A DNA stretch of 61,459 nt, counting the filler, from Hausera hauseri (taxonomy: Eukaryota): NCBI GenBank assembly GCA_046269625.1. It is 10 parts of 10 records of this genome, joined end to end, with 100 filler letters (N's around TTAATTAATTAA, not from the genome) between each part and the next. Parts side by side here need not be neighbours in the genome. Positions count along the whole stretch, not along the records: positions 50,213 to 54,210 come from JBJURY010829749.1; 9 more parts are not named here. The stretch is one strand, 5' to 3'. Made by a program: the position numbers and the translations under genes. Below are positions 2,215-58,906 of this stretch, piece by piece. The notes beneath the pieces were generated by a model. It saw only the letters and a program-made list of their open reading frames with translations. It had not been told where the DNA came from and made no database searches. Position 1 is the first letter of the stretch, and the number at the start of each line of letters is the position of its first letter.

Positions 2215-2460
2215 GTTGTTGTTGGATTCGCCGGAAATGAAGAGTTAGACTGGTTGTGGTACCGTACGCAAATTCAATAAGGTAGTCCGCGTCACATCTG
2301 ATATTCACTTCAACATTGTTATTAATTCCCTCAGTGCAACCTCCCATTGTCCAGGACAAAAATCCAAAGGATTGTTCCAATCTACAACATATTCACTGGC
2401 GGAATTGTTCGGACAAGTCGTCGGACAACTGTTGCTCGGCAACACCATGTAAATACTCAT
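2213..2460 (-). pseudogene. Penton/minor capsid gene 2, internally deleted
   Basis: N-terminus MSIYMVLPSNS...WEVAL joined directly to C-terminus NVEVNIRCDADYLIEF...TLHFRR; the homologous copy at 31035-31939 is much longer. Confidence 0.75.
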
Positions 2461-2509
2461 GATCTCGATGATGATAATGATGATGGTAGTGATGGTGACG
2501 CAGTTTGTT

Positions 2510-3010
2510 TATTGTCGACGTTGACGACGTCGAAAATGTAATGTCAAATGTGTCGTTGACTAGAATAGAAATTTAATGGGTTCCCAAAATTCATCAAACA
2601 TATACACGGAAATACTGTGCACAATATTGTGAGATGATGATAAGTACATAAGTCTGAACATAATAACGCGAACAGTTTCACCCGATGATGATGATTTGTA
2701 CGTGTCAGAATCCAGTTCGATAGAAGACAGCAGTTGTTTGCTTTCTCCACCAACGAGTACGGATTCGGTTAAGTCTGTAAAAATGTTGATTCGGGGAAAT
2801 GCTCCATAGAGTTTTGGTTTGTATTTGGCAACAATAGATCGTCCAACAATGTTTTGATAAAATTCGCGTTTTGAAAACCCGGATTCCAAGCAAAATATGT
2901 AACATTGTCATGGAGTGTAATCGAAATATGACCATCTGCGTTTATTTCATGTCTTTACGGCTAATGTAGCCGTTTTCTTGAAGTACTCACACAATTCCAG
3001 TTCCTCTTCC
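2510..3010 (-). pseudogene. Penton/minor capsid gene 1, C-terminal half
   Basis: NIFTDLTESVLVGG..KQLL...MYLS...HSISVYMFDEFWEPIKF; highly similar to 31991-32490. Confidence 0.75.
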
Positions 3011-3093
3011 ATTAATAAACCTTGTAATATAATATATGAGCGGAGGACTGATTTTGACTTAGTCCACTTTACTATAATATAGGATTCCTCATT

Positions 3094-3800
3094 AGTAGGA
3101 GGAAGTGAGCACTACACCGCACTTCTCTGATTGGTCAGTCGACCAATGTGCACCCTACCACACTTCTTGTATTGGTCAGTCAACCAGTTTCCCCACCTGG
3201 TTGGCTATTTCGAGCATTTCAAAACTTTTCTCATGACCCCCCCCCCCGCGGGCACAAGCCCTGGACATCGGACCGACTCAAGTCGGTAGAGCTCGACGAG
3301 CTGAACAAAAGTTTATAGCGGTGCGGCTTACAGAAATGTAAGGGAGAAGCGCTAGAAGAGAAAGAAACAAAACAGGAAATGCTCACGTGTAACGCGAAAC
3401 ATGTCGGTAGCACGGAGAAAATGTGTACAAAGGATAAATCGATATTGCCAAATCCAATGAACACGGTTGCAACTCAATCAGACCATGGGAACATGGGGAA
3501 AAATTTATGGGAAAATTTCAAACGGGGAAAATTTCCCTTTACACAAGTCAAACGGTGAGGGAAATGGGTTCACCACATAGCCCATCAGTAGTTGAGCATT
3601 TCATATTATAACCGCCTCACGAACAGACGAAAGAATAGGGGTGAAAATGGCAACCGAACAAACAACCGAACCGAAAAAACGCATTGTTAAAAGTCTATGT
3701 CACAATCATATAGTAGGGGAAAAAAGAGAGTTCTAGACCAGTGAAGGGGAGAGGGATCCACCCACCCACCAATTGACCAATCACAAGCGGCTTGCACGCT
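3094..3800. repeat. Probable Maverick terminal (TIR) region
   Basis: Begins AGTAGG, contains several GATTGG/CCAAT boxes, and is clearly homologous to 29611-30170 and 30172-30727. Confidence 0.6.
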
Positions 3801-28815: not shown

Positions 28816-29610
28816 AAAGCAAAAGGTTATGGTATGAAAATTTAAATTTTTATTATCAAGAATTTTATTGATTATTATTTCATATTAACAATATTTGAGT
28901 GGCACTTCTGAACTATATGCCTATTACATTGAAGTACGCCTAATCAATAAATGAAATATTAATGATTCACATCTATAAATATTTTCTTAAAAATGTCTCG
29001 AGGACAGAAGCTTTGGAGTTCTGATTTTTTGTCCGCTGTCATTCGATATGAATAACTATATCTGATGGATATCTATTTAAATTTGGCATAGAATATTTTC
29101 TAATCACTGTTGATTTCGTATCAAGAAATTTGGGGTTTAACGCACTGTTACTGTCTATTTTTTATTTACATTCATTCTAATTTTAGCACAAACAAAACCA
29201 AACAAACAATGTTTATTAAACATATAGATACATTATATACAATTTCATTTTTAATCCAAACTTCAATTGAAACATTTTTTAATTTTTGTAACTAATCAGG
29301 TTTATCCAACTTTCAACTTACCTTCGGCATGCATATTGGGAAAAATTTAATATGAAATTAGATAAATCAAGAGTAGAAGTTTTAATTATTTGGTACCGTA
29401 TTTACTGATTGATGTTTAAATGCTTTTTAATGCACTAAACAATGAAAATACTGTTCTTTAGTGGCGTGTCGAAAGTGAGAAAGAATTTATTGCCCAATAT
29501 CTTTTCTTTTTAGGGACATGCAAAATTTTCCAATTTTGGTCCTTTTTTTATGAAAAATTAAACCGGAAGAAATTTAAAATTTGTAAAAATATTATTGTGG
29601 GAACCGTATA

Positions 29611-30727
29611 AGTATGTAGAAGTGAGTTCTCCACCGCACTTCTCTGATTGGTCCGCCGACCAGTTTTCCCCACCTGATTGGATATTCTGAACATTTCACT
29701 AAAATTTTCTCACGACCCCCTCCAGCAAATGAGGTCGAGCAAAGAGGTTCGGACCAGGTGGTATCGATAGCGCGTGACAAGGTGAGAAAAAGCTAACACA
29801 GGTGCCGCTTACAGAAATGTAAGGAAGAGGCGCTAGAAGAGGAAGAAGCAAAACAGGAAATGCTCTACGTGTAACGCGAAACATGTTGCTAGCACTGAGA
29901 AAATGTGTACAAGGGGTAAATCGATATTGACGATTGCAATGGACACTGTTGTAAGTCGGTCAGACCATGGGAACATAGGGAAAAATCGATGGGAAAATTT
30001 CAAATAGGTAAAATTTCCCCATGTTTAAGTCTGCCGGTGATGTAAATTGGTCTAATATATTGCCCATACGCTGGGGAAAATTTCATATTATAGCCGCCTC
30101 ACGATCAGACGAATGGATCGGGGTGAAAAATGCAATCAAACGAACCAACCAACCAAAAAAGCTCAATGTAAAGTCGGTAGGTGGAAGTGTCCTCTCCTAC
30201 CCACTTCCCAAAAAGTGATCAGATCGAGCTGAAAACCAGTTTTCTCTACCCATCTCGCAATTCTGATCATTTCACGTTTTGTAGTCGGAGACCCCTCATC
30301 CGGAAGCACATGTCACCGGCGGAAATCGGTAGAGCTGGATGAGGCGAGAAAATTTTTCTGGCGAGGTGAGAGTCAAAAATATTACTGGGCGGCGCTAGAA
30401 GCAAAAGAAGCAAAACAAGAATTGTTTTATGAGAAACAAGACATGAGTTACGAATTGCGCAATGTTTGGCGCAAATGTCAAATCAATGTCGGGGAATCAA
30501 ATGCGCACAATTTCAACGTTGTCTGACCGTGGGAACATGGGGAAAAATTGATGGGGAAATTTCAAACTCTAAAAATTTCCCATTGTTCAAGTCTACTGGT
30601 TGTGGAAATTGGTAGATCACGTAGTCCATCAGTAGTTGAGCATTTCCTATTATAGACGCCTCACGATTAGACCAATGGATCGGGGTGAAAAATGCAACCG
30701 AACCAAAGAAACGCATTGTTAAAAGTC
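29611..30727. repeat. Maverick terminal region, two diverged tandem units of about 560 bp
   Basis: Units 29611-30170 and 30172-30727 share blocks (gctagaag, accatgggaacat, ggaaaatttcaaa, gcctcacga, ggggtgaaaa) with each other and with 3094-3696. Confidence 0.65.
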
Positions 30728-30813
30728 AAAATCATCATTATCGTTGTAAATGTGTTCGTTTGTAGAAAAATCGTGAATTTTATTTTGTACGACGACGAAC
30801 AAGTTACCATGAG

Positions 30814-31034
30814 CATATTCGGACTCACCGCAATGAGTTGAGTGTGGAAAAATTTCGGATTGATCCGGTTTCGGACACCTACATATTCGGACTCACCGCA
30901 ATGATTTGAGTGGGGAAAAATTTCAGACTGATCCGGTTTCGGACACCTACATATTCGGACTCACCGCAATGAGTTGAGTGGGAAAAAATTTTGGACTTAC
31001 CCGGTTCCGGACACCTGCATATTCGGACTCACCA
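30814..31034. repeat. 68-bp tandem repeat, three units plus a partial
   Basis: catattcggactcacc starts at 30814, 30882, 30950 and 31018. Confidence 0.92.
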
Positions 31035-31939
31035 AAAAATTGCTGCTTTCCGGATAAATTGCACGGAGTAGCGGTACACGTACTCCACCAACCAAAATCG
31101 GTTCGGTCACGTTCACGTAAATGTACATTTGACTTAGTCCCGTTTTCAGTTTGGGTTTAAGTGTTGCAAGATGTGCCACCGCGGCAGCCGTCGATGCCTC
31201 AAACCGCTGTTTTTCAATACTCAATATCATGGCCAAAGCTTTGTCCAATGAAATGTCGACAGTTTCCTTAGCCAGTTCAAATTTAATGTACCCATTTGAA
31301 TCTGACTCGAAAACTTTAAATATCGCCTTGTACTTTTGATTTGAAGAAAAAAAATGTTAAGAGATGTGCTACAGATTCGCAATAGACATTGTTTCCAATC
31401 GATACATATGACGCTGACACCCTTTATGTTATATAGGTAAATTTCACCGTTGTCTGGTAATGTACGGGACATAATCTTGGGCCAACTACATATTCACTTT
31501 TAATATGTTTACCTTTGTACTCTGTATTTTTGAATTCAAATTTCTGCGCCATCTCAGAGGACTCAAAGGTAACAGTTAATTCAAAATCTGCCATAAAATG
31601 TAAGTTTCGATCTAAAATAAAAACACCGATTTTGCCGTGTAAACCGTAATTTGCTTCGGTCGTGCAAATGGTCGATTCTGCAACTGTTATTTTATTATTA
31701 GTATGTGTCAGAGGACAAGAATGTGTTTTGGTTTTAGTAACAGTCTTGTTATATGTTATTTTCATACTACATTTCAATGTCACCGGTGCGTAGGGAAAGT
31801 TAAATTCCGTCAGTGCAACCTCCCATTGTCCAGCAGATAAATCTAAAGGACTGTTCCAATCTACAACGTATTCACTGGCTGAATTGTTCGGACGAGTCGT
31901 CGGACAACTGTTGCTCAGCAAAACCATGTAAATACTCAT
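31035..31939 (-). pseudogene. Penton/minor capsid gene 2, 3'-truncated
   Basis: MSIYMVLLSNS...WEVALTEFNFPY; later MYIYVNVTEPILVGGVRVPLLRAI. Confidence 0.8.
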
Positions 31940-31990
31940 GATCTCGATGATGATGATGATGGTGATGATGGTGATGACGCAGTTTGTTTA

Positions 31991-32490
31991 TTATCGACGT
32001 TGACGACGTCGATAATGTAACGTCAAATGTGTAGTTGATCCAAACAGAAATTTAATGGGTTCCCAAAATGCATGAAGCACATACACGGAAATACTGTGCA
32101 CAATATTCTGAGACAATGATAAGTACATAGGTCTGAACATAATAACGTGAACAGTTTCACCCGATGTTTTGTACGTGTCAGAATCCAGTTCGATATAAGC
32201 CAGCAGTTGTTTACGTTCTCCACCAACAATTACGGATTCGGTTAAGTCCGTTAAAATGTTGATTCGGTGAAATGCTCCGTAGAGTTGTGGTTTGTATTTG
32301 GCAACAATAGATCGTCTAACAATGTTTTGATAGAATTCGCGTTGTGAAAAACCCAGATTCCGAGCCAATAATTCATTAAAGGCAAAATATGTAACATTGT
32401 CATGTAGTATAATCGAAATATGACCATCTGCGTTTATTTCACATATCTTTACTGCTAATGTAGCCGTTTTCTTACGTACTCAATTCCAGT
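31991..32490 (-). pseudogene. Penton/minor capsid gene 1, C-terminal half
   Basis: LGF...NILTDLTESVIVGGERKQLL...FRPMYL...THLTLHYRR. Confidence 0.8.
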
Positions 32491-34929: not shown

Positions 34930-37345
34930 TCATGGCGGTAGATAGTCTGTGCTAAGTAAATGTTTGAAAATTGCCTTGTTAAAGGAGCAGCCTGTTGGTA
35001 AACTTTTGATGGAGTGTGGGAGGCTGTTCCATAGATGTGCACCAGAGTACGAAAGGCTCTTTTTGTAATGTTCAATCCTGGGTTTGGTTAGTATGAGCTG
35101 ATGCAATCTGCGACCATCTCTTCGGCTGGTGTTAAACAGTGGTACCAAATAACAGACGGAGTGGTTAGATAGAATTGTGTGTGTAAATTTGGCCTTGTAG
35201 AGAAAGCGTTTTCTAAGTGGTAATATTTTAGAAACCACTTTTTTCCTGGTGTCATGTTTAAGGTGCTTGTCAGCAATAAGGTTGACTGCTCGTTTGTGTA
35301 AAGAACACATCCGTTTGGTGGTAGATGCAGAGCAACCGTCCCAAACTGTTGAACAATAGTCTAGACGTGATTGGATATGTGAGGTGAAAAAAAAGCTGTC
35401 TTGTATCGTCATCAAGGAAGCGTTTCATTTTTGCCAGTTGGTATGTTTTCTTAGATGTGTTTTTTTTTTTTTTGTTAATTGTTGAACATGTGAGTGCCAT
35501 GTTAAATGTTGATCTATCGTCAATCCTAAAACTGTGTGTTCTGTGACGTGTTCCATTGATGTATTCTCAGTGTGGAGATGAAGCATTTGTTTTGGCATGC
35601 TCTGGAGTTTTTTGTCTTGTTGTAGTAAGCATGGATTTTGTTTTCGAACTATTTAGAAGCATGCGATTTGTTTTGCTCCACTTGATTATATTATGTACAT
35701 TCACTTGAAATGTACTTTCTAGTGAGTCACTATCCATTTCACTTGTGTACATGGTGCAGTCGTCAGCAAAGAGGTCACATGTTGTGTTTGTGCAGTGAAG
35801 TGGCAGATCATTGACATATAATGAAAAAAGCAGAGGCCCAAGGATAGAGCCTTGAGGCACGCCAAATTTTATGGTTGTTCTCGGAGATATCAAATAATTA
35901 TAACAAACTTGCTGGTGTCTGATTGAAAGAAAAGATTTGAACATATCTAATGGTTTATGACCCAGGCTGAATGTTTTTAATTTTTGCATAAGGATGACGT
36001 GGTCAACCATATCAAAGGCGTTCTTGGAAATCAATAAACACGGCACCGCACACCTTATAGTCAATAATACTAGACAGCCAGTTGTCTACTATTCTGGTCA
36101 GGGCTGTGTGACATGAATGTTTTGGCAAGAAACCTGATTGATTTTCAATCAGAAGACCGTTGGATGTTAGGTGTTGGAGTGTAATGTTGTATATGTGTTT
36201 TTCTAGTGGTTTAAAAAGAGATGATAGAAGACATTTTGGTCTATAATTGTTAGGATCGTTTAATGAGCCTGATTTATGTAACGGGTAGACTTTGCCAATT
36301 TTAAATGCAGTGGATAAGTAGTTTTTGGCTATGCATTGATTGTGAATATATGTTAGAGTATCACTGATTATCGGTGCACCATGGTGCAAGATTCTGTTGC
36401 TAATACCATCCAGACCTGAGCAGTTGTTGTTCTTTAGCGCCAGAAGGTATTTATAAACTTGATGGACTGTTAGGAAGGGAATGTTCTCTAGCGTTGGCGT
36501 GTTACATGTTTTATTGAAGCAAGTTTTTTTTTGACCGTTATCATAAGTGACATAGGGTTGATCGAAGATTATATATTTCATTAGTAAAGTGGTTACTAAA
36601 ATGTTGTGCCGTGAGAGTATTTTTAGTTGAGGTGTCTGCTGATTTTCTTTTGTGTGATAGAGTGTTTATTGCTGTCCAAATGTTTTTGTTGTCTGATGTG
36701 TCATGGATCATGTTAAAATGTTTAAAGCTTCTGAAGCGTACTGTGATATGCTCTTGTTTGGGTTATTTAAGTCCTCATTTTGTCCACGTGCAGCATGTAG
36801 GATAGTGACTGTACATTCTGTGATGTGTGCTGGATATGTTGTGTAAATGTGATCGATTAGTGTGGAAGATGTTTCTGTAACCCTGGTTGGCTGATTGACT
36901 ATTTGTGTTAGGTTGTATGAAAGAATGATGTTATTCTATATGTTGTTTTGTTTGTAAAGGTCTATATTGATGTGCCCTAGGAGAATAATTTCTTTTGACG
37001 AGTCCCAGACTTTGTTCAGCTTCAGTGAGAAGTTGTCAAACCAAATGGCTGGGCATTTTCTGTAGAGATAACAAATTAGAATCGAACTTATGTTGGGAGT
37101 TTTATTTCTAGCCAAATGCACTCATCATCAATAGGTTCCAGGTCGAAGCGACGAGTTGCCTATATGGATGTCGAGACGTAGATGGATATACCAGCCTCTA
37201 GTTTTCTGCAAGGATCTCTACGGATTATATTGAAACCATTGATACTAATATCCTTGTCTGTAATGTTATCGTTTAATCGAGACTGCGAGAAGCCGAATGT
37301 TTGAAAGTCAAGAATCAAGACATTTGTTATTTCCGAGAGCTTACC
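34930..37345 (-). mobile_element. CR1/L2-type LINE ORF2 (APE endonuclease + RT), degraded
   Basis: NYRPKCLLS, NQSGF, AFDMVDH, GVPQGSILGPLLFSLYVNDL, LFADD, SRLDYCSTVW; upstream IILLGHINID and SETR-like endonuclease motifs. Confidence 0.9.
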
Positions 37346-38080
37346 TCCTAATAATCAGTGCTGGGATCAGCTTGCTCAATATGTTTACCTTAGATTGAGA
37401 CCCACAGTTTAGAAGTCTCTGTCTTGGTTACAGCTAACTGTTAAAATTATATCTTGTGAATAATATTAACAATTTTATCTTGCCAACATTAATGAACATT
37501 CTGTTGACTGTGCACCACGGTTGTGGTACATTTAAATGGCGCTGTAGAAGAGACTTACAGAGTAAATGTCTGTGCCAGCTACAGTCAGAGTTATATCATC
37601 AGCAAACATAAGATTTTCATCACGCGGGAGTGTTAACAGAATGCCATTAACACAAAAATAGAGCACCTGTTACTGAGCCATGTGGGACGCTTATTGATAA
37701 AGGATGGGGTTGTAATAAGATGTTAATACGAAGAAAAACGCTGTGTTCGGTTTTCAAGAAAGGACTGAACCACTGAGATAGCGTCAAGATACAATTTTAG
37801 TTTATGTAAACGCATTCTGTGGTCTATTCGTTCAAATGCCTTGCATAGATCTATCAACAGAACACCATTAATTTTATTACAGTTTATGTTCGAGTGACCT
37901 GTGTCAGTGAGTTTGGTTAGTAGAGACTGGTAAGAGTGGTTACGTCTAAAACCTGATTGATTCTCATGTAAGAGATTAAATATCATTGATAGAAGTCTGC
38001 ATATGGTTATAAAGAGTCGCTCGAGAGGCTTGGATATTGCAGAAGAAAGTGAAATCCGTCTATACTCTTCTGCAAGTTCA

Positions 38081-38340
38081 GGAGCCGCGGTGGCATAGTG
38101 GTTAGTGAGCTCCTCTGCCGATCGTGTGGTCGTGGGTTCAGTCCCAATTGTGGGCACTGAATTATTTTCGACCAAAACTGTCAGTGGCACACCCAGCCTC
38201 ATAAATGGGTACCGGAGAAATCTCTGAGAAAGTAAAGGCTGACACATAAAGCAATCATGTACCCGTGTCAAGGAAAAATAGGAGACTAAATCTACATTTG
38301 CCTGTACGCCTTATGTAGGCGTGTAATGGACTTTACCCTG
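38081..38340 (+). mobile_element. tRNA-derived SINE
   Basis: A box TGGCATAGTGG, B box GGTTCAGTCCC, CACCCAGCC..AAATGGGTACC core; target-site duplication CTGCAAGTTC at 38070 and 38341. Confidence 0.8.
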
Positions 38341-42029: not shown

Positions 42030-43990
42030 TCATTCCCGGAGCTATAAAGAAATGGCCTGGATCTAACTTGTGGTTCTTAAGGGTCACATACCAGAAGCTT
42101 TCGAAGACATCAGTAAGCAACCGCACATCTGTGATGAACTAGATATCTCTGTATTCCCCTATTGTCCTGCACTCAAAGGTCTGCCATACCCTTTGGGCGT
42201 GATCATAATCAGCATCGCTAATATGACTCTATGACAACTGACTACAGACGTCCTCCTTGGCTGGTAATACATCTTCATATAGTGCTTTCCATGACGTTAT
42301 ATAGTCATAGGGGAACACTCCTTTCCTCTTGACTAGGTCAAAGTTAGTTGGAAAGAACCACTTCGTCTCCTTGAGTTCTTCTGCAGGGAGGTTCTTCACT
42401 AAACTGTCCAGTAACGAGCTCATTAAGCGGAAGCTCTCTATAACTCGAAGTCTAATGCGGCCCACATGCATCATGAAGGTGATGTACTTCTCCTCACTAT
42501 TTGGAATCACGTCAATGTTCCCCTCAATATTACCCAATTCTCGAACAATGAAGTGGGAATCGTATACATTAAGACTGTGGAATACAACGGGAACATATGT
42601 ACATGTCTTGCAGCGTACGTTGCAATTGGTGCACGTTGCAGTTCGGTATATGTCTGTAAAATGGCAGTGATCTCTAACTTTGTGATTGTCCCAATTGAAT
42701 GGCATTCTGCATAAGTAGCATGTTGATGCTTTGTGCCATTCACATTTTTCTTGCTGTGACATCACCATGTAGCCCTTATACTGCTGCAACAAGTCTTCAA
42801 GTTTGTGAGCATACTGTTCAAGACTCTGCATAAAATGTGCTGCTGCATTTACACCCCTGTATAGGTAGGGTTCTTTGTCCAGTCCATTGGCATATATGCA
42901 GTATGATGATAACTTATGGTACCGTTATGCTGTAGTACTGCTTTGCTGTGGATTGGGGCTGCAATTATGAACTGGACTGAAGATGGCTTCAAAGTCACAA
43001 TATATGACAATCGGCACTTTCTGCATCTTCTCGAACTCCTTGAATTCCAGGTAATCCTCGTTGGAGAATTCTACTCGGATGCAATAGTTTGTATTGCTGT
43101 AGGTCTTGTGCTCCTCCAGCTTTTCTGCGGCTGTGTCTCTATTAAAATGGGTAAAGCATCTTTTGCATATTTCCATCCCAGATTTATGCTTAGATATCTG
43201 GGATCCTACGAGGCGCTCAAAATTTTTGATCCAGATGAAATGCCTTGTTTCTCCATCATCTAGCAGGAGCAGATCCCCATGATCCTCCAATTCCTCCTTG
43301 CACACATGTAAGGGATAAAATTTGTCCTCCTCCAATCTGAAGATATTGATGGAGATGTTGTTCACGCTTTCAAATTTCACGACTTCATCTATGCTCGGAG
43401 GGAAAGAAGTACAGTTGAAGTCGTATGTGTGCTGCACTTTGTCACATATATACAAACTAGGGAAGCATTATGTTGATCCTGGACTAGTTTTGACAAAATA
43501 GAACACATGAAGCACATGCTGTCCTCATTATGGACATTGATGCATGCCTTTTTCTTTACTATCCATTCAGGAAGCGGTATGTAGGAGTTGTCTCTCATCG
43601 GAGAATAATTGTGCACATGCACAAGTAACCCATTTATTGTTGCTAAAGTCCAACCACTCTTCTTGTTCTGGCTTTCTTCGGGTTCGCGGATAATCCTGAC
43701 ATAGTCCTCTGTAATGAAATCCTTAATGTTAGAGGATTTCAATAGTGGCCTGTTTTTTGTCTTGTAGGCTGTACTAGACAGCTCGCCTTTGACATTAGTG
43801 AAGGTGGCTTCTAATTTGAATTTCACCTTAAGGGTCTTTAGCTCCAACAAGTTGTCCTGGAGAATTCCTGCTGCCTCCTCCTTTAAAGATTCCAGGAATT
43901 CATGGAACGATGTCTGCCCCACTGCTGCTATGAAGTATCACCGCACTTTGCTCTTCAGTGCAGCTACATAAACTGGCCGCTCTCTTTGGC
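42030..43990 (-). pseudogene. polB: Protein-primed family B DNA polymerase (Maverick/adintovirus type), N-terminal half
   Basis: KSGWTL; YIPLPEWIVKKKACINVHNEDSMCF; VIYCDFE (Exo I); KVRDHCH endonuclease-VII-like insert; FHSLNVYDSHFI (Exo II); RKGVFPYDY. Confidence 0.9.
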
Positions 43991-50212: not shown

Positions 50213-50570
50213 TTTACCGGTTATTCGAGCTTATAAACAGTGTTGTCTATCTACGTTCATTGGGATTAATGGTGTCGTTGGTTTGATTATTAAAGTATCA
50301 CCATGCATATTACCACAATGAAATACGCTGCGGGATCTCCGTATCATGCATTCCGTTGCGTCCATTGCAATTAATTCACGCTGTTGACAGAGTACATATC
50401 TTTTTTCTGTTGTCTCGAGCTCGTGAAATCTCGTATCTTCACATGTTTCTAAATCCATCAGGGAATATTTCTGACCCACCTTGAATTTGTCGCAGTCGTA
50501 TATAGTGACGGAACCTATCTACTTTACTAGCATCATTATCGTCAACAAATTTATTAGCCAATTGGATTCG
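50213..50570 (-). pseudogene. env: N-terminus of a second class III env copy
   Basis: GQKYSLMDLETCED...DATECMIRRSRSVFHCGNMHG, closely similar to 26400-26750. Confidence 0.85.
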
Positions 50571-53500
50571 TTTCCTTTGTTCGGGAGATATTTTGTATCA
50601 TGTCCTCTATTTTATTAATCCCTTTTGCTTCCTCCTCCTTTTTGAATAATTTAGTCCATTTTATCTCTTAGCTGCCCTTATTGCAGCTTTTCTGGCTAAC
50701 CCAATTGTCTTGTCGAATTCATTTTCCGGAGAGGGTTAGTTCTTACTGCCAAATATATCAAGACTTTCCTTCATTCTTCCATTATATTGTCTGTGATAAT
50801 TCTATCAAATACTGTTTCATCAGGGATGGCGCTTTTAGATAATTTGAATCGTGAAATCTTCATTGTCCGGTCTAGATTATATATTAGTCTTTCCATCTCG
50901 GATAATAGGTCACCTTGGAGTCCAGTATAATTGACTATCCTAATTAAATCTATCATTAGTTCAATTAGTTCAATTAGTTCTTCGTTATCTGAACTCGGGG
51001 TTGATACCGATCGTTGTCTCAATTCCCTAATTAGGTCTGCATTGTAATCGATTTCTTTTATTTTTCTCGGTCTTCGGACCGGTCGCTTTAGTTTCATTGG
51101 TGGTAAGATTTCACTTAGAGGAACTAAGTTTTTATCGTATTGCGGTTTGTCACCATCAGTCTGTAAGTATTCAAAATACATTGCGGCATCCTGAATCCCC
51201 ATGATTCTTCCGGACGCAATGCTCTGTATGTGCCTTTCTCATGGCTTCATCTTTGGTTTGCTTACTGGCGATTATTGCTATTATTCAATTTTCCTCGAGG
51301 GGTATGATCCCTACACCTGTCAAGGATTCTAACTCGTCTAATATCCTGCCCCTGAAATAGAGTCGATAATTAACTCCTTTCCTACCGTCATTATCCATTA
51401 TCCGCTGTTTTATATCCCCAACGGTGGTATAAGTAGTGCATTCAAATTCCTCATTGTCCATTCCTTCGGATGATACTTTCACTTTTAATTTCCGCTTCTG
51501 GTTTATTTTTCAACAGTTTGGCATATTCTCTTATTAAGAGCTTGGGTACAGCGTTGTATGCGGTGTTTTCACTGGATAGCTTGGTCAAGGTTGGAAGCAA
51601 TCTCCTTAACCTATCTTCACTTATGTTTATTTTCAAAGCACTGCTCAGTTCCTTTTCAGCTAGTGTGGGATCAAGTAACATTTGCACTTCGAATTTCGTC
51701 TTGTGGGTACCAATACGTGACTGATAAATTTGTATTGGAGTTCTTTGGCTTTGCTCGTTTAAACCCTGAAGGTATTTATCCTACTCGGCCTCATTCTCTG
51801 CGTCAGATAATTCGTAGTTCATTAATGCCGCGTGTCCAACTTGGACTCTTTCGCGTAAGTCTCTTATCTGCGGTTGGAATGTTTTCATTACGGGTATCCT
51901 AAATCCGTCTCCGCTTCCGCAAGCTTGTAGTATTAATGTTATTAATCGGCACATTTCTTCTGGTTGTATTAGGGCTTTTTCCTGATAGCTAGTCACTTCT
52001 GCGATTCTGTCCCTTTGCCATCTTTGTATAAATTCCGTTTTGTCGTTCATTTCGGATTCCGTAAGGGAGTACTTGTTCTTGTGTACTTCTGTTTCTCTCA
52101 GTAGTTCGTTTAGTACGCGCTGTCTTTTTTCGGAGTGTAACCGGGTCTCTTTTACTAGACGTATTTAATTTATTAGCCGTCTGGCTACTACTTCGTCAAT
52201 TTCTGCCATTTCTGTTAATAGTAGGATTAATTTGTGCGTTTGATTTAATACCTCGGCATCCGGGTCTATTGCGTCCATTAGCCTGCCTATAAACTTGGCT
52301 TCGTCGCCCGTCAACTGAAGAAACTTCCTAATTTCCGTTAGTTAGGTGTAACAATGTAGGTCGAAACCTGGCGTCCATTCTACTGGATTCTGTAAATATT
52401 GTAGTGTTTGCGCCAGAGCAATCCGGTAATCGCTACATACTTCTAATGTTTCTATTTTCTGTGATGAGATTTTCTTCAGCGGTTTCTGCATTAGGTTCTG
52501 TATCCCTTCCCAACGGATGTTCGCTAAACTTCGCTGAAGATCACTTATCTTGTTTCTTTTTCTGTAGAATTCCTTTTCTTTTATCATACTATATATCTCT
52601 GTTAGTGTCGTTCGATCTTGGTCCCTACTCATAAATTCAAGTTCTCGGAATGATTCGAATTTAATTCGCAATCTCGCTTCGCTTTTCATCGTACCAATAT
52701 CTAGTAACATTTCTTCCAATTTGTGTCTCATTATAGACTCAACCACAGAGAATTCTCTCAGTCTTTCATTTATTACTCCTGCTATGGAAGGTAACAAGTC
52801 TACCCACTTTCTTATTTGTTTAGATATTGCTGGTTTAGAGCGGATTATTTCGTCTAATGTCCCAATAGCTTCTTTTAGTTCGTGATCTGGCCCTCGTACA
52901 AATTCTATGATCTGTTTCATGTAGTTGAATTCTTTATACTCGCCTAATTCGAGAAGACAAGCGCGTATTATTCTCTGTGCTTCTATTCTTTCAGAGTGAA
53001 CTACACCGCTCTTAAAGTTGTTGATTTTGGTTCGCATTTCATTTTCTTTTTCAATACGTATTTTTAAATCTGGGTATTTTTGAGGGCTATCCTTTATCAG
53101 GATGCACATTGCCATCAAATGGGAAATATCGATTGGGTATATGCCCAATATCATTAAGTCGGCATCAGTCAATTCATATACTGGCTTATTATTAAGATAA
53201 GAGATTATCGCATCTTCGATCTCATATATCAATCCTTCTAAATTACGTCTTACGCGTTTCAGTTTTGGGTTGTCTTTTAGTGCGTTTAATAGTCATTGCG
53301 CTTGATTAACCTGATCGAGAAACGGCTTATTTCTATTCCACCATATTTTCGTAAAATCGATCCCACTTTTTGTCCACAGTTCTAATTTATTTTGCAAACT
53401 TCTTATCAATTCTTGCGGCTTCTCTTGGAATTCATAAGTTGTGTCCTCCTTTTTCTGAGAACCAGGTTTAAGCTTTTTATATAGCTTCTCTATGAATTTT

Positions 53501-54210
53501 TGTTCTTTTCCGGAGATATACAACTGTTTGCTCATCTGCTGGAGTTTTTGTAGGTTCTCCTGTAGCCTTTCGGGATCACTCAGTGCGTTTCTTATTTCGG
53601 TTATTTCGTTTCCATTTTTCCAGGATTTTCTAATCTTTCCAAACTTGACCGGTTTTCCCCTTCTGGTTCCTCTTCGCTAAGCGGTATTTGACAGACTTCA
53701 TTAATTTCATCAATATTTGAGATATATGTTGTTTCAGGAACGTCTTGAGTTATAACAGAAGTATTCAACTCCGTTTCATCTCTTAAAGTGATGATGAAAT
53801 CATTTTCCTTTTCTAAATTCTTTTTAATAGGGGATCGTGAACGAGTTCTCGACCTCCGCCTAAGTGAAGGACTTTTACCTCTATTTTTGGTTATCTTGAG
53901 TATTAGTGGACCAATGAATTCGCTCTTAACCTCGTCTGTTGTTTTGTCCTTATCTTGAGACGTGACCTCGGTATCTGCGTCCAAGTCTACACTTGAAGAC
54001 GTAGTTGGATTGTCTTCTTCCTCCGCTTGACTTAGGTTTTTCTTTCTGGCCATGTTAGTATTTCCAGGCGCTATAGCCTTTTCGTACTTGGTTTTCGGTT
54101 CTCTTAATCCATGGTAAACTTCCATTTGCTGCAACTTTTCTTCGTATTCCTTCCTGGCCTTGATTACTTGTGGATTATTATACTCACTTATACTTCTTAC
54201 ATACCTTCGC
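50570..54210 (-). pseudogene. Long fragmented coding region upstream of env (same family as 22303-26946)
   Basis: Continuous run of minus-strand ORF pieces; 50570-50665 is homologous to 26750-26860 (WTKLF...KGIN..DMI). Confidence 0.65.
51285..51482 (-). CDS. Ubiquitin-like domain
   Basis: TTVGDIKQRIMDNDG...YRLYFRGRILDELESLTGVGI versus ubiquitin TIENVKAKIQDKEG...[21 protein letters not shown]. Confidence 0.7.
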   Translation of the reverse strand: MKVSSEGMDNEEFECTTYTTVGDIKQRIMDNDGRKGVNYRLYFRGRILDELESLTGVGIIPLEEN

Positions 54211-58067: not shown

Positions 58068-58906
58068 CCAGTTTTGAATATGATTTCGAAATTTACAGCG
58101 ATGACAAATGGTTATCAATCATCAAGGAAGATGAGTACTACCCTTATGTAGAAAATAACGAAGAACAAATCCTATCAAAAACTAAACGTTACTTGTTAGG
58201 ATGCGCCGACGAACCAGCTAACTCAATGGACTATACAACAGTAAACAACGCCGGAACAATTTAATTAATGTTAGCAGTAGCATCAGGAAATGAAAAGAGA
58301 GCCAGAGACGCCATTACCCAACTAGATTATGAAGCAGCTGAAGCGCTGAAGTTCCAAGTTACGAACGGCGACACCATCGTTCATCTAGCCATTATGAGCG
58401 AGTGTCCTGATTTCTTTATACTCATGCTCATCCAGTCACAAGCACCCTTACATTTACCAAACGTGGATGCAGACATTCCCTTACTACTCGCTATACGCCA
58501 TGGTCGACATAACCTTGCAACACCAATATTCGATTATTCCTACGAAAACAAAGCGTTTCAAACCATTTTCCAATCACAATTACGCAGTATCTCATTGCAC
58601 CACGCCATATTTTTCAAACGGTTCCTCTTACTGGAAACCTTCCTGAATAAAAAATTCGCCAACAGAACATACCTATTCGACGTAAACTACGCGCATGGCA
58701 CTTATGAGAAGACTCTTCTCATAACTGTGCTTCTAACTCGTACATATGGGGCAGTATCCATCCTGATGCGCCAACCAGATATCCATCCAGAAACCGACAA
58801 TTATGGAAACCTGACGATCAATGACGTACTGATACGGAATCCCATGATTAGCTCCTTCGAACGTGAATGCCTACTAGCTATCATGCGTTGCGATATCGTA
58901 GTATAA
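58064..58906 (+). pseudogene. Ankyrin-repeat protein (one in-frame stop at 58262-58264)
   Basis: NNAGTI*LMLAVASGN; NGDTIVHLAI; DADIPLLLAIRHGRHNLA; SLHHAI. Confidence 0.8.

Follow-up and report, generated by a model that had tools for sequence, protein, structure and literature searches.

A long in-frame region between Gag and env in a Burro-like Ty3/gypsy retroelement family of the Hausera hauseri assembly

The 3,998-bp contig JBJURY010829749.1 (G000:C829749) of the Hausera hauseri assembly is, at a probability that we put at roughly 85%, a 5′-truncated and decayed piece of a high-copy Ty3/gypsy LTR retroelement in which capsid, zinc knuckle, a long region X, env and pol are read in one frame, with X likely serving as a membrane-anchored, host-modulating extension of Gag and not as its replacement. 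The contig fills positions 50213–54210 of the window, the whole 61,459-nt stretch of DNA that was analysed, and is read on the minus strand. The window consists of ten short contigs with N44-TTAATTAATTAA-N44 spacers in between, so that nothing links the feature to anything upstream in the window, and since the feature is exactly one contig, its 5′ end is a contig end and no biological boundary. The features discussed below, in window coordinates and all on the minus strand, are as follows.

50213..54210, minus: whole contig G000:C829749, a decayed internal fragment of a Burro-like Gag-X-Env-Pol Ty3/gypsy element, with spacers at both ends
53640..54209, minus: start of X, an acidic low-complexity region (residues 453–649 of the natural frame P0005), ~40 codons past the off-contig Gag CCHC
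53829..53861, minus: RS-rich tract RRRSRTRSRSP, conserved in copies
51820..53643, minus: ~610-aa all-alpha module in the AlphaFold2 model, family-specific and without a recognised relative (dN/dS 0.13)
51266..51700, minus: short helical block and ubiquitin-like domain (PF00240) without a C-terminal GG, the stretch being interrupted by one frame change and one stop
51062..51088, minus: motif that we take to be AT-hook-like, its GRP core found in most copies shown and altered in the window copy
50640..51050, minus: divergent helical domain, probably Bcl-2-like by joint profile, with the C-terminal end WTKLF (likely a BH2 remnant) and with frame changes in the window copy
50644–50658, minus: WTKLF, within this pre-env domain
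50510..50560, minus: hydrophobic internal signal-like segment at the X/env boundary, the sole hydrophobic peak ahead of the env transmembrane segment (TM) in P0005
50213..50509, minus: N-terminus of a class III (Monjiviricetes/gB-type) fusion glycoprotein (PF24664), the domain cut by the contig end
22303..26946, minus: second contig of the same family, with WTKLF, env, linker, protease, RT and RNase H

Gag just upstream of the contig end

The original prediction described more than 1,100 codons upstream of env without a recognisable Gag, and offered as explanations either a highly divergent or replaced structural protein or a large accessory region with the true gag further 5′. We count ~1,216 codons ahead of the env signal segment (minus strand, 54209–50560), a span that in the window copy is interrupted by six or more frame changes and eight or more in-frame stops. 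All the features that had been read from the contig (RS tract, acidic stretch, long helices, ubiquitin-like domain and WTKLF) are present, and no zinc knuckle or capsid was found inside it, as had been stated.

Judged from sister copies, the contig starts 119 nt past the Gag zinc knuckle. Our survey returned 19 other loci, 18 of which match the contig 5′ end, 5 without upstream DNA and 13 with it. A nucleocapsid region lies upstream in all 13 of the latter and a Ty3/gypsy capsid region in each of the eight copies with at least 1 kb upstream, while an intact CCHC is present in seven copies and ends 119 nt before the contig start in six. The single zinc knuckle of the family is recognised by Pfam (E 4e-7) and resembles HIV-1 NC (E 5e-5). 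The capsid scored alone is weak (PF03732, E 0.003; dArc2, E 0.71); in a profile comparison the Gag of the present family matches that of family B, a sister family in the same genome, with Prob 97.8%, and the family-B Gag itself matches the dArc2 capsid (E 1e-8) and scores above the cut-off for Ty3_capsid. Only ~67 codons precede CA, with no evident matrix. Gag is intact and normal, with capsid and CCHC upstream of X in the same frame, and its seeming absence is a contig-end artefact. The suggestion of an accessory region with the true gag further 5′ is borne out by these sister copies, in which the standard Ty3/Gypsy CA that the prediction had named as evidence against itself lies just upstream.

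The family is a high-copy one: in an own-genome DNA search, 39 other contigs match the feature among 40 of 854 candidates scored, the best matches being 81–89% identical. Positions 50213–50669 match the second window contig (22303–26946) at 81% identity over 458 nt (E 1e-124). The claim that the X-env junction exists in two diverged copies therefore holds for the match itself and fails for the notion of two rare members, as one high-copy family accounts for both window pieces, each an ordinary copy.

Reading frame, pol and LTRs of the element

In one natural copy an open stretch of 2,268 codons extends without interruption from ahead of Gag as far as the env TM. CCHC and X share a frame in 14 of 16 sequence-distinct copies, X and env in 58 of 64, and no stop is common to more than 18% of copies at any position across Gag-X-env, or to more than 20% across pol and the tail. 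The first shared stop (5/6 copies) follows an FN3-like-TM tail behind integrase, where ORF1 continues through a second signal peptide, an FN3-like ectodomain and a TM (L044:5470-9600, L052:7952-9505, L051). With lengths added from overlapping copies, ORF1 comes to ~4,100 aa, in the order CA-CCHC-X-signal-env-TM-PR-RT-RH-IN-signal-FN3-like-TM.

Across overlapping copies, pol runs RVP, RVT_1, RT_RNaseH, Integrase_H2C2 and rve, which is the Ty3/gypsy (Metaviridae) order, and in a similarity ranking the best match of the RT is the Ty3 RT 4ol8 (E 4.7e-61), those of caulimovirus type and of retroviruses ranking below it. A segment of ~150 aa between PR and RT has no Pfam match at E 0.1. ORF2 encodes an exonuclease region like that of ISG20L2 (E 0.007), together with a RING finger (E 1e-7). 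The unit is bounded by an LTR of ~690 bp with TG..CA ends, followed by TGGCGACC, which resembles a primer-binding site (PBS), and preceded by a purine tract resembling a polypurine tract (PPT); the pattern for a tRNA gene matching the PBS was found 0 times. The genome holds 131 exact LTR ends, and the unit is ~16.5 kb as the sum of lengths seen in overlapping copies, no examined contig holding the whole element. By pol order, RT, capsid and CCHC, and LTR with PBS- and PPT-like sites, the present family is a Ty3/gypsy (Metaviridae) LTR retroelement.

At five loci (L143 on G000:C274396, L158 on C151088, L180, L194 and L199) head-to-tail junctions share one LTR, with RING end, PPT, LTR, PBS and gag in succession. 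Thirty of the 131 LTR ends were fetched, and the 13 with enough upstream DNA comprised 3 tandem, 4 3′-LTR, 2 5′-LTR and 4 solo-like cases. The shared-LTR junctions may be real tandem arrays or the result of assembly collapse; none of the contigs compared with the tandem LTR junction spanned it. A search of sequencing runs listed no RNA holder.

Region X and its counterparts in sister families

X covers residues 413–1664 of the natural frame (~1,250 aa) and is made up of the acidic/RS tract, the ~610-aa all-helical module, the ubiquitin-like domain, the AT-hook-like motif and the divergent, probably Bcl-2-like domain. It is under purifying selection: computed against 12 loci of the same subfamily for those parts of X that could be computed, dN/dS along X is 0.12 (acidic), 0.13 (helical), 0.10, 0.04 and 0.05 (pre-env domain), values that are rough because dS (1.2–2.3) is near or past saturation, being saturated for the ubiquitin-like domain and, against the second subfamily, for most regions.

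From 141 natural stop-free stretches, AlphaFold2 models residues 641–1250 as all-helical with pLDDT mostly 80–95, dipping to ~60–75 at residues 61–120, and the rest of X at 30–65 (~55 in the pre-env domain); a single-sequence fold of X gave pLDDT 33 and was unusable. Of the fold check that had been proposed, structure prediction gave a confident model for the helical module, and the Foldseek comparison, made with the whole 1,045-aa model, listed no capsid, nucleoprotein or matrix fold. The 1,045-aa model of X had no match at E≤0.001 in Foldseek pdb. One unnamed match in Foldseek viral (E 3.4e-4, TM 0.08) was set aside as not meaningful. All that VIA-align returned were generic bundles of three or four helices (Z≤9.7), weak spectrin-like ones (Z ~8) among them; capsid, N, M, Bcl-2 and ubiquitin folds were not among the matches listed for the whole 1,045-aa model, an outcome that excludes none of them. 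The ESM Atlas gave no usable match for the helical module or the pre-env domain, word-index protein searches of X came back empty, and other protein sequence searches found one 150-aa unnamed ENA fragment at 33% besides polyubiquitins. Within the helical module no internal repeat exceeded Prob 4.4%. As modelled, the module is a confident, conserved and family-specific structure without a recognised relative, and a literature search, which did not extend to most subscription papers or Repbase, found no description of it or of the present family.

Five further Gag-X-env-pol families occur in the same genome (L223, L270, L271, L277 and L278). Searched with the Pfam Bcl-2 model, the genome yielded at least 127 matches among 150 scored, several of them in the long ORFs of family B, which reads Gag-CCHC-Ubl-AT-hook-Bcl-2-signal-env-pol (Ubl, ubiquitin-like domain); four more families with the same layout were found by env search. 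The order Ubl-(AT-hook)-Bcl-2-like-signal-env is kept in all five, and the distance from the last CCHC to env is 590, 603, 939, 1,112 and 1,265 aa in them and 1,271 aa in the present family. Family F has three CCHC. The helical module has no match above Prob 6% among the inserts of the five families. The Ubl block is homologous to that of family E (Prob 98%) and of family D (87%). The Ubl itself, scored on sister copy P0001, matches PF00240 at E 1.2e-4 and 22.2 bits, below the 25.4 cut-off.

The family-B domain matches PF00452, above the Pfam cut-off in several copies, as well as host-like Bcl-2. For the pre-env domain of the present family, there is no Bcl-2 match in Pfam at E≤1, a direct profile match to host-like Bcl-2 reaches Prob 0.25%, and matches to single families stay at or below 2.2% (up to 1.1% in the reversed control). 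When 14 sequences of the other five families are combined in a joint profile, the domain aligns with it over 116 columns at E 3e-4, with a score of 28.9 against 14.1 ± 2.0 in shuffles, reached by none of 60 block shuffles, and WTKLF falls on the GGW..F end. The pairwise chain runs from host-like Bcl-2 to B (81%), B to F (95%), F to E (84%) and E to D (93%), and the joint profile against host-like Bcl-2 reaches Prob only 7.9%. By position and transitive homology, then, we consider it probable that the pre-env domain is of Bcl-2 origin, with WTKLF likely a BH2 remnant; such a remnant can escape Pfam.

A Ubl-Bcl-2-signal-env cassette is thus common to at least six families in one assembly, the Bcl-2 assignment in the present family being the probable one just given, and the stretch preceding it varies from ~590 to ~1,270 aa. 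A tentative idea, which we hold possible without favouring it, is that in Burro-like elements an exchangeable cargo slot separates the nucleocapsid from this fixed cassette, and that here, in a flatworm lineage other than the planarians, the slot is filled by a conserved 610-aa all-helical protein of undescribed fold that acts as a host-directed effector or as a second layer of the particle.

Place among known elements and possible function

Burro/GYPSM1 are giant gypsy-like LTR retrotransposons of planarians (PMC6431247, citing Grohme 2018 and Jurka 2007), and the accessible part of that source gives them a 4,873-aa ORF with Gag, Smc, MATH, Ubi/SUMO-like, BCL2-like, an in-frame mononegavirus-type env, PR, dUTPase-like, RT, RH and IN. 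The present family shares with them one giant ORF with a typical CCHC-bearing Gag at its N-terminus, a Ubl, a Bcl-2-like domain (here by joint profile) and an in-frame mononegavirus-type env that follow one another from Gag to PR, a further segment separating PR from RT, a RING-type accessory domain, and a long helical region where Burro was annotated with Smc or midasin-like (PMC6431247). It differs in having one CCHC where 2–3 are described, an ORF1 of ~4,100 aa against 4,873–5,140 aa, and a unit of ~16.5 kb with a ~0.7-kb LTR against more than 30 kb with an internal region of up to 25 kb, the LTR length differing as well; Burro-type MATH, BIR and ankyrin have no Pfam match in the scanned segments of the present family, the ~150-aa segment without a Pfam match stands where Burro has a dUTPase-like domain, the Bcl-2 domain is eroded beyond Pfam, unlike that of Burro, and the Burro host is a planarian whereas the present family comes from a mixed assembly (all for the parts of PMC6431247 available). 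The layout is therefore one already published for Burro, to which the present family adds a further family; as it appears to work like Burro and departs from it in two traits, size and CCHC number, we name it Burro-like, by likeness of layout.

GAG-ENV-POL errantiviruses with an HSV/gB-type env have been reported from Platyhelminthes, Bryozoa and Nematoda (PMC13524379), and share with the present family the gag-env-pol gene order and a class III env (PF24664). By eye and unaligned, our env resembles the six Smed_errantivirus env fragments shown in the accessible part of that source and is identical to none of them. The errantivirus GAG was predicted in the 5 kb preceding env, roughly the length that Gag-X takes up here, and the passages available do not describe what lies from Gag to env (PMC13524379). 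Troyka, as described in the available part of PMC12440569, was rejected as a match, having CG..CG ends and no env.

The env N-terminus matches PF24664 at E 3.7e-9 on the paired copy and 1.7e-65 on C427696, and Gag-X-env has only two hydrophobic peaks, one at 1669 (the signal) and one at 2229 (the env TM). From general polyprotein topology, we would expect host signal peptidase to cleave behind the internal signal. Gag-X would then stay in the cytosol, tail-anchored by the hydrophobic remnant of the cleaved signal, and env would lie in the lumen, with Pol carried on the env cytosolic tail until the element's protease frees it. In cellular Bcl-2 proteins the domain lies ahead of a hydrophobic membrane-anchoring tail, and a Gag-X anchored in this way would place its Bcl-2-like domain before a membrane anchor in the same manner. 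That domain would likely damp or modulate apoptosis, the Ubl, non-conjugatable for want of a terminal GG, could be a spacer or a module for interactions, and the 610-aa module might, as a guess, act as a scaffold within a cargo slot that is not the same from one family to the next. For structural studies of the ways in which these elements may deal with host cell death, the helical module is a reasonable target.

The proposal that X is itself a replaced or very divergent structural protein, a nucleoprotein or matrix captured from a negative-strand virus along with the Monjiviricetes-type env and standing in for Gag, could draw on the mononega/chuvirus type of the env and on a helical module that is large, well folded in the model and conserved. 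It is largely refuted and we regard it as very improbable: a normal CA and CCHC stand upstream in frame, Foldseek pdb and viral returned no nucleoprotein, matrix or capsid match to the 1,045-aa model, with only bundles from VIA-align, and the helical module is undetected in five sister families whose env belongs to this type. Still less credible is an unrelated insertion or dead filler in the window copy. The many stops and frame changes of that copy might suggest it, yet X sits at the same place, in frame, in dozens of copies of two subfamilies and is under purifying selection, which refutes this reading.

Doubtful, although much closer to consideration, is a mainly structural X, a helical spacer or second shell layer linking capsid to membrane in the manner of a matrix, with the Ubl and Bcl-2-like folds as inert assembly domains. 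The shortness of Gag ahead of CA, the predicted membrane anchor at the end of X, the weak spectrin-like matches and the eroded BH motifs are consistent with it, whereas the wide range of insert lengths among families (~590 to ~1,270 aa) without detectable insert homology is unlike a core structural layer, and the sister families retain a recognisable Bcl-2. A membrane-anchored, host-modulating extension of Gag thus remains our preferred reading of X.

The assembly is mixed, with at least six distinct COX1 genes (L290–L296), one of them with a vertebrate-type code pattern. One broken COX1 copy has AAA at two conserved Asn sites, as in a flatworm/echinoderm-type code, and we take it to be a flatworm-type remnant; the other COX1 group assignments are likewise our assumption. 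On the neighbouring, unlinked contig of the window, an ankyrin-repeat ORF (58265–58906, plus strand; Ank_2, E 1e-4) is possibly the accessory region of another element. Elsewhere in the window, a fragment at 42229–42924 (minus), which is presumably Polinton-like, matches DNA_pol_B_2 (E 8.5e-4) and Endonuclease_7 (E 0.007), and three RVT_1 fragments of other retroelements lie at 35567–38310 (minus). Repeats common to two contigs, 79–93% identical, occupy 2324–3709 and 29608–32473, and a 68-bp tandem repeat is present in three copies at 30814–31033.
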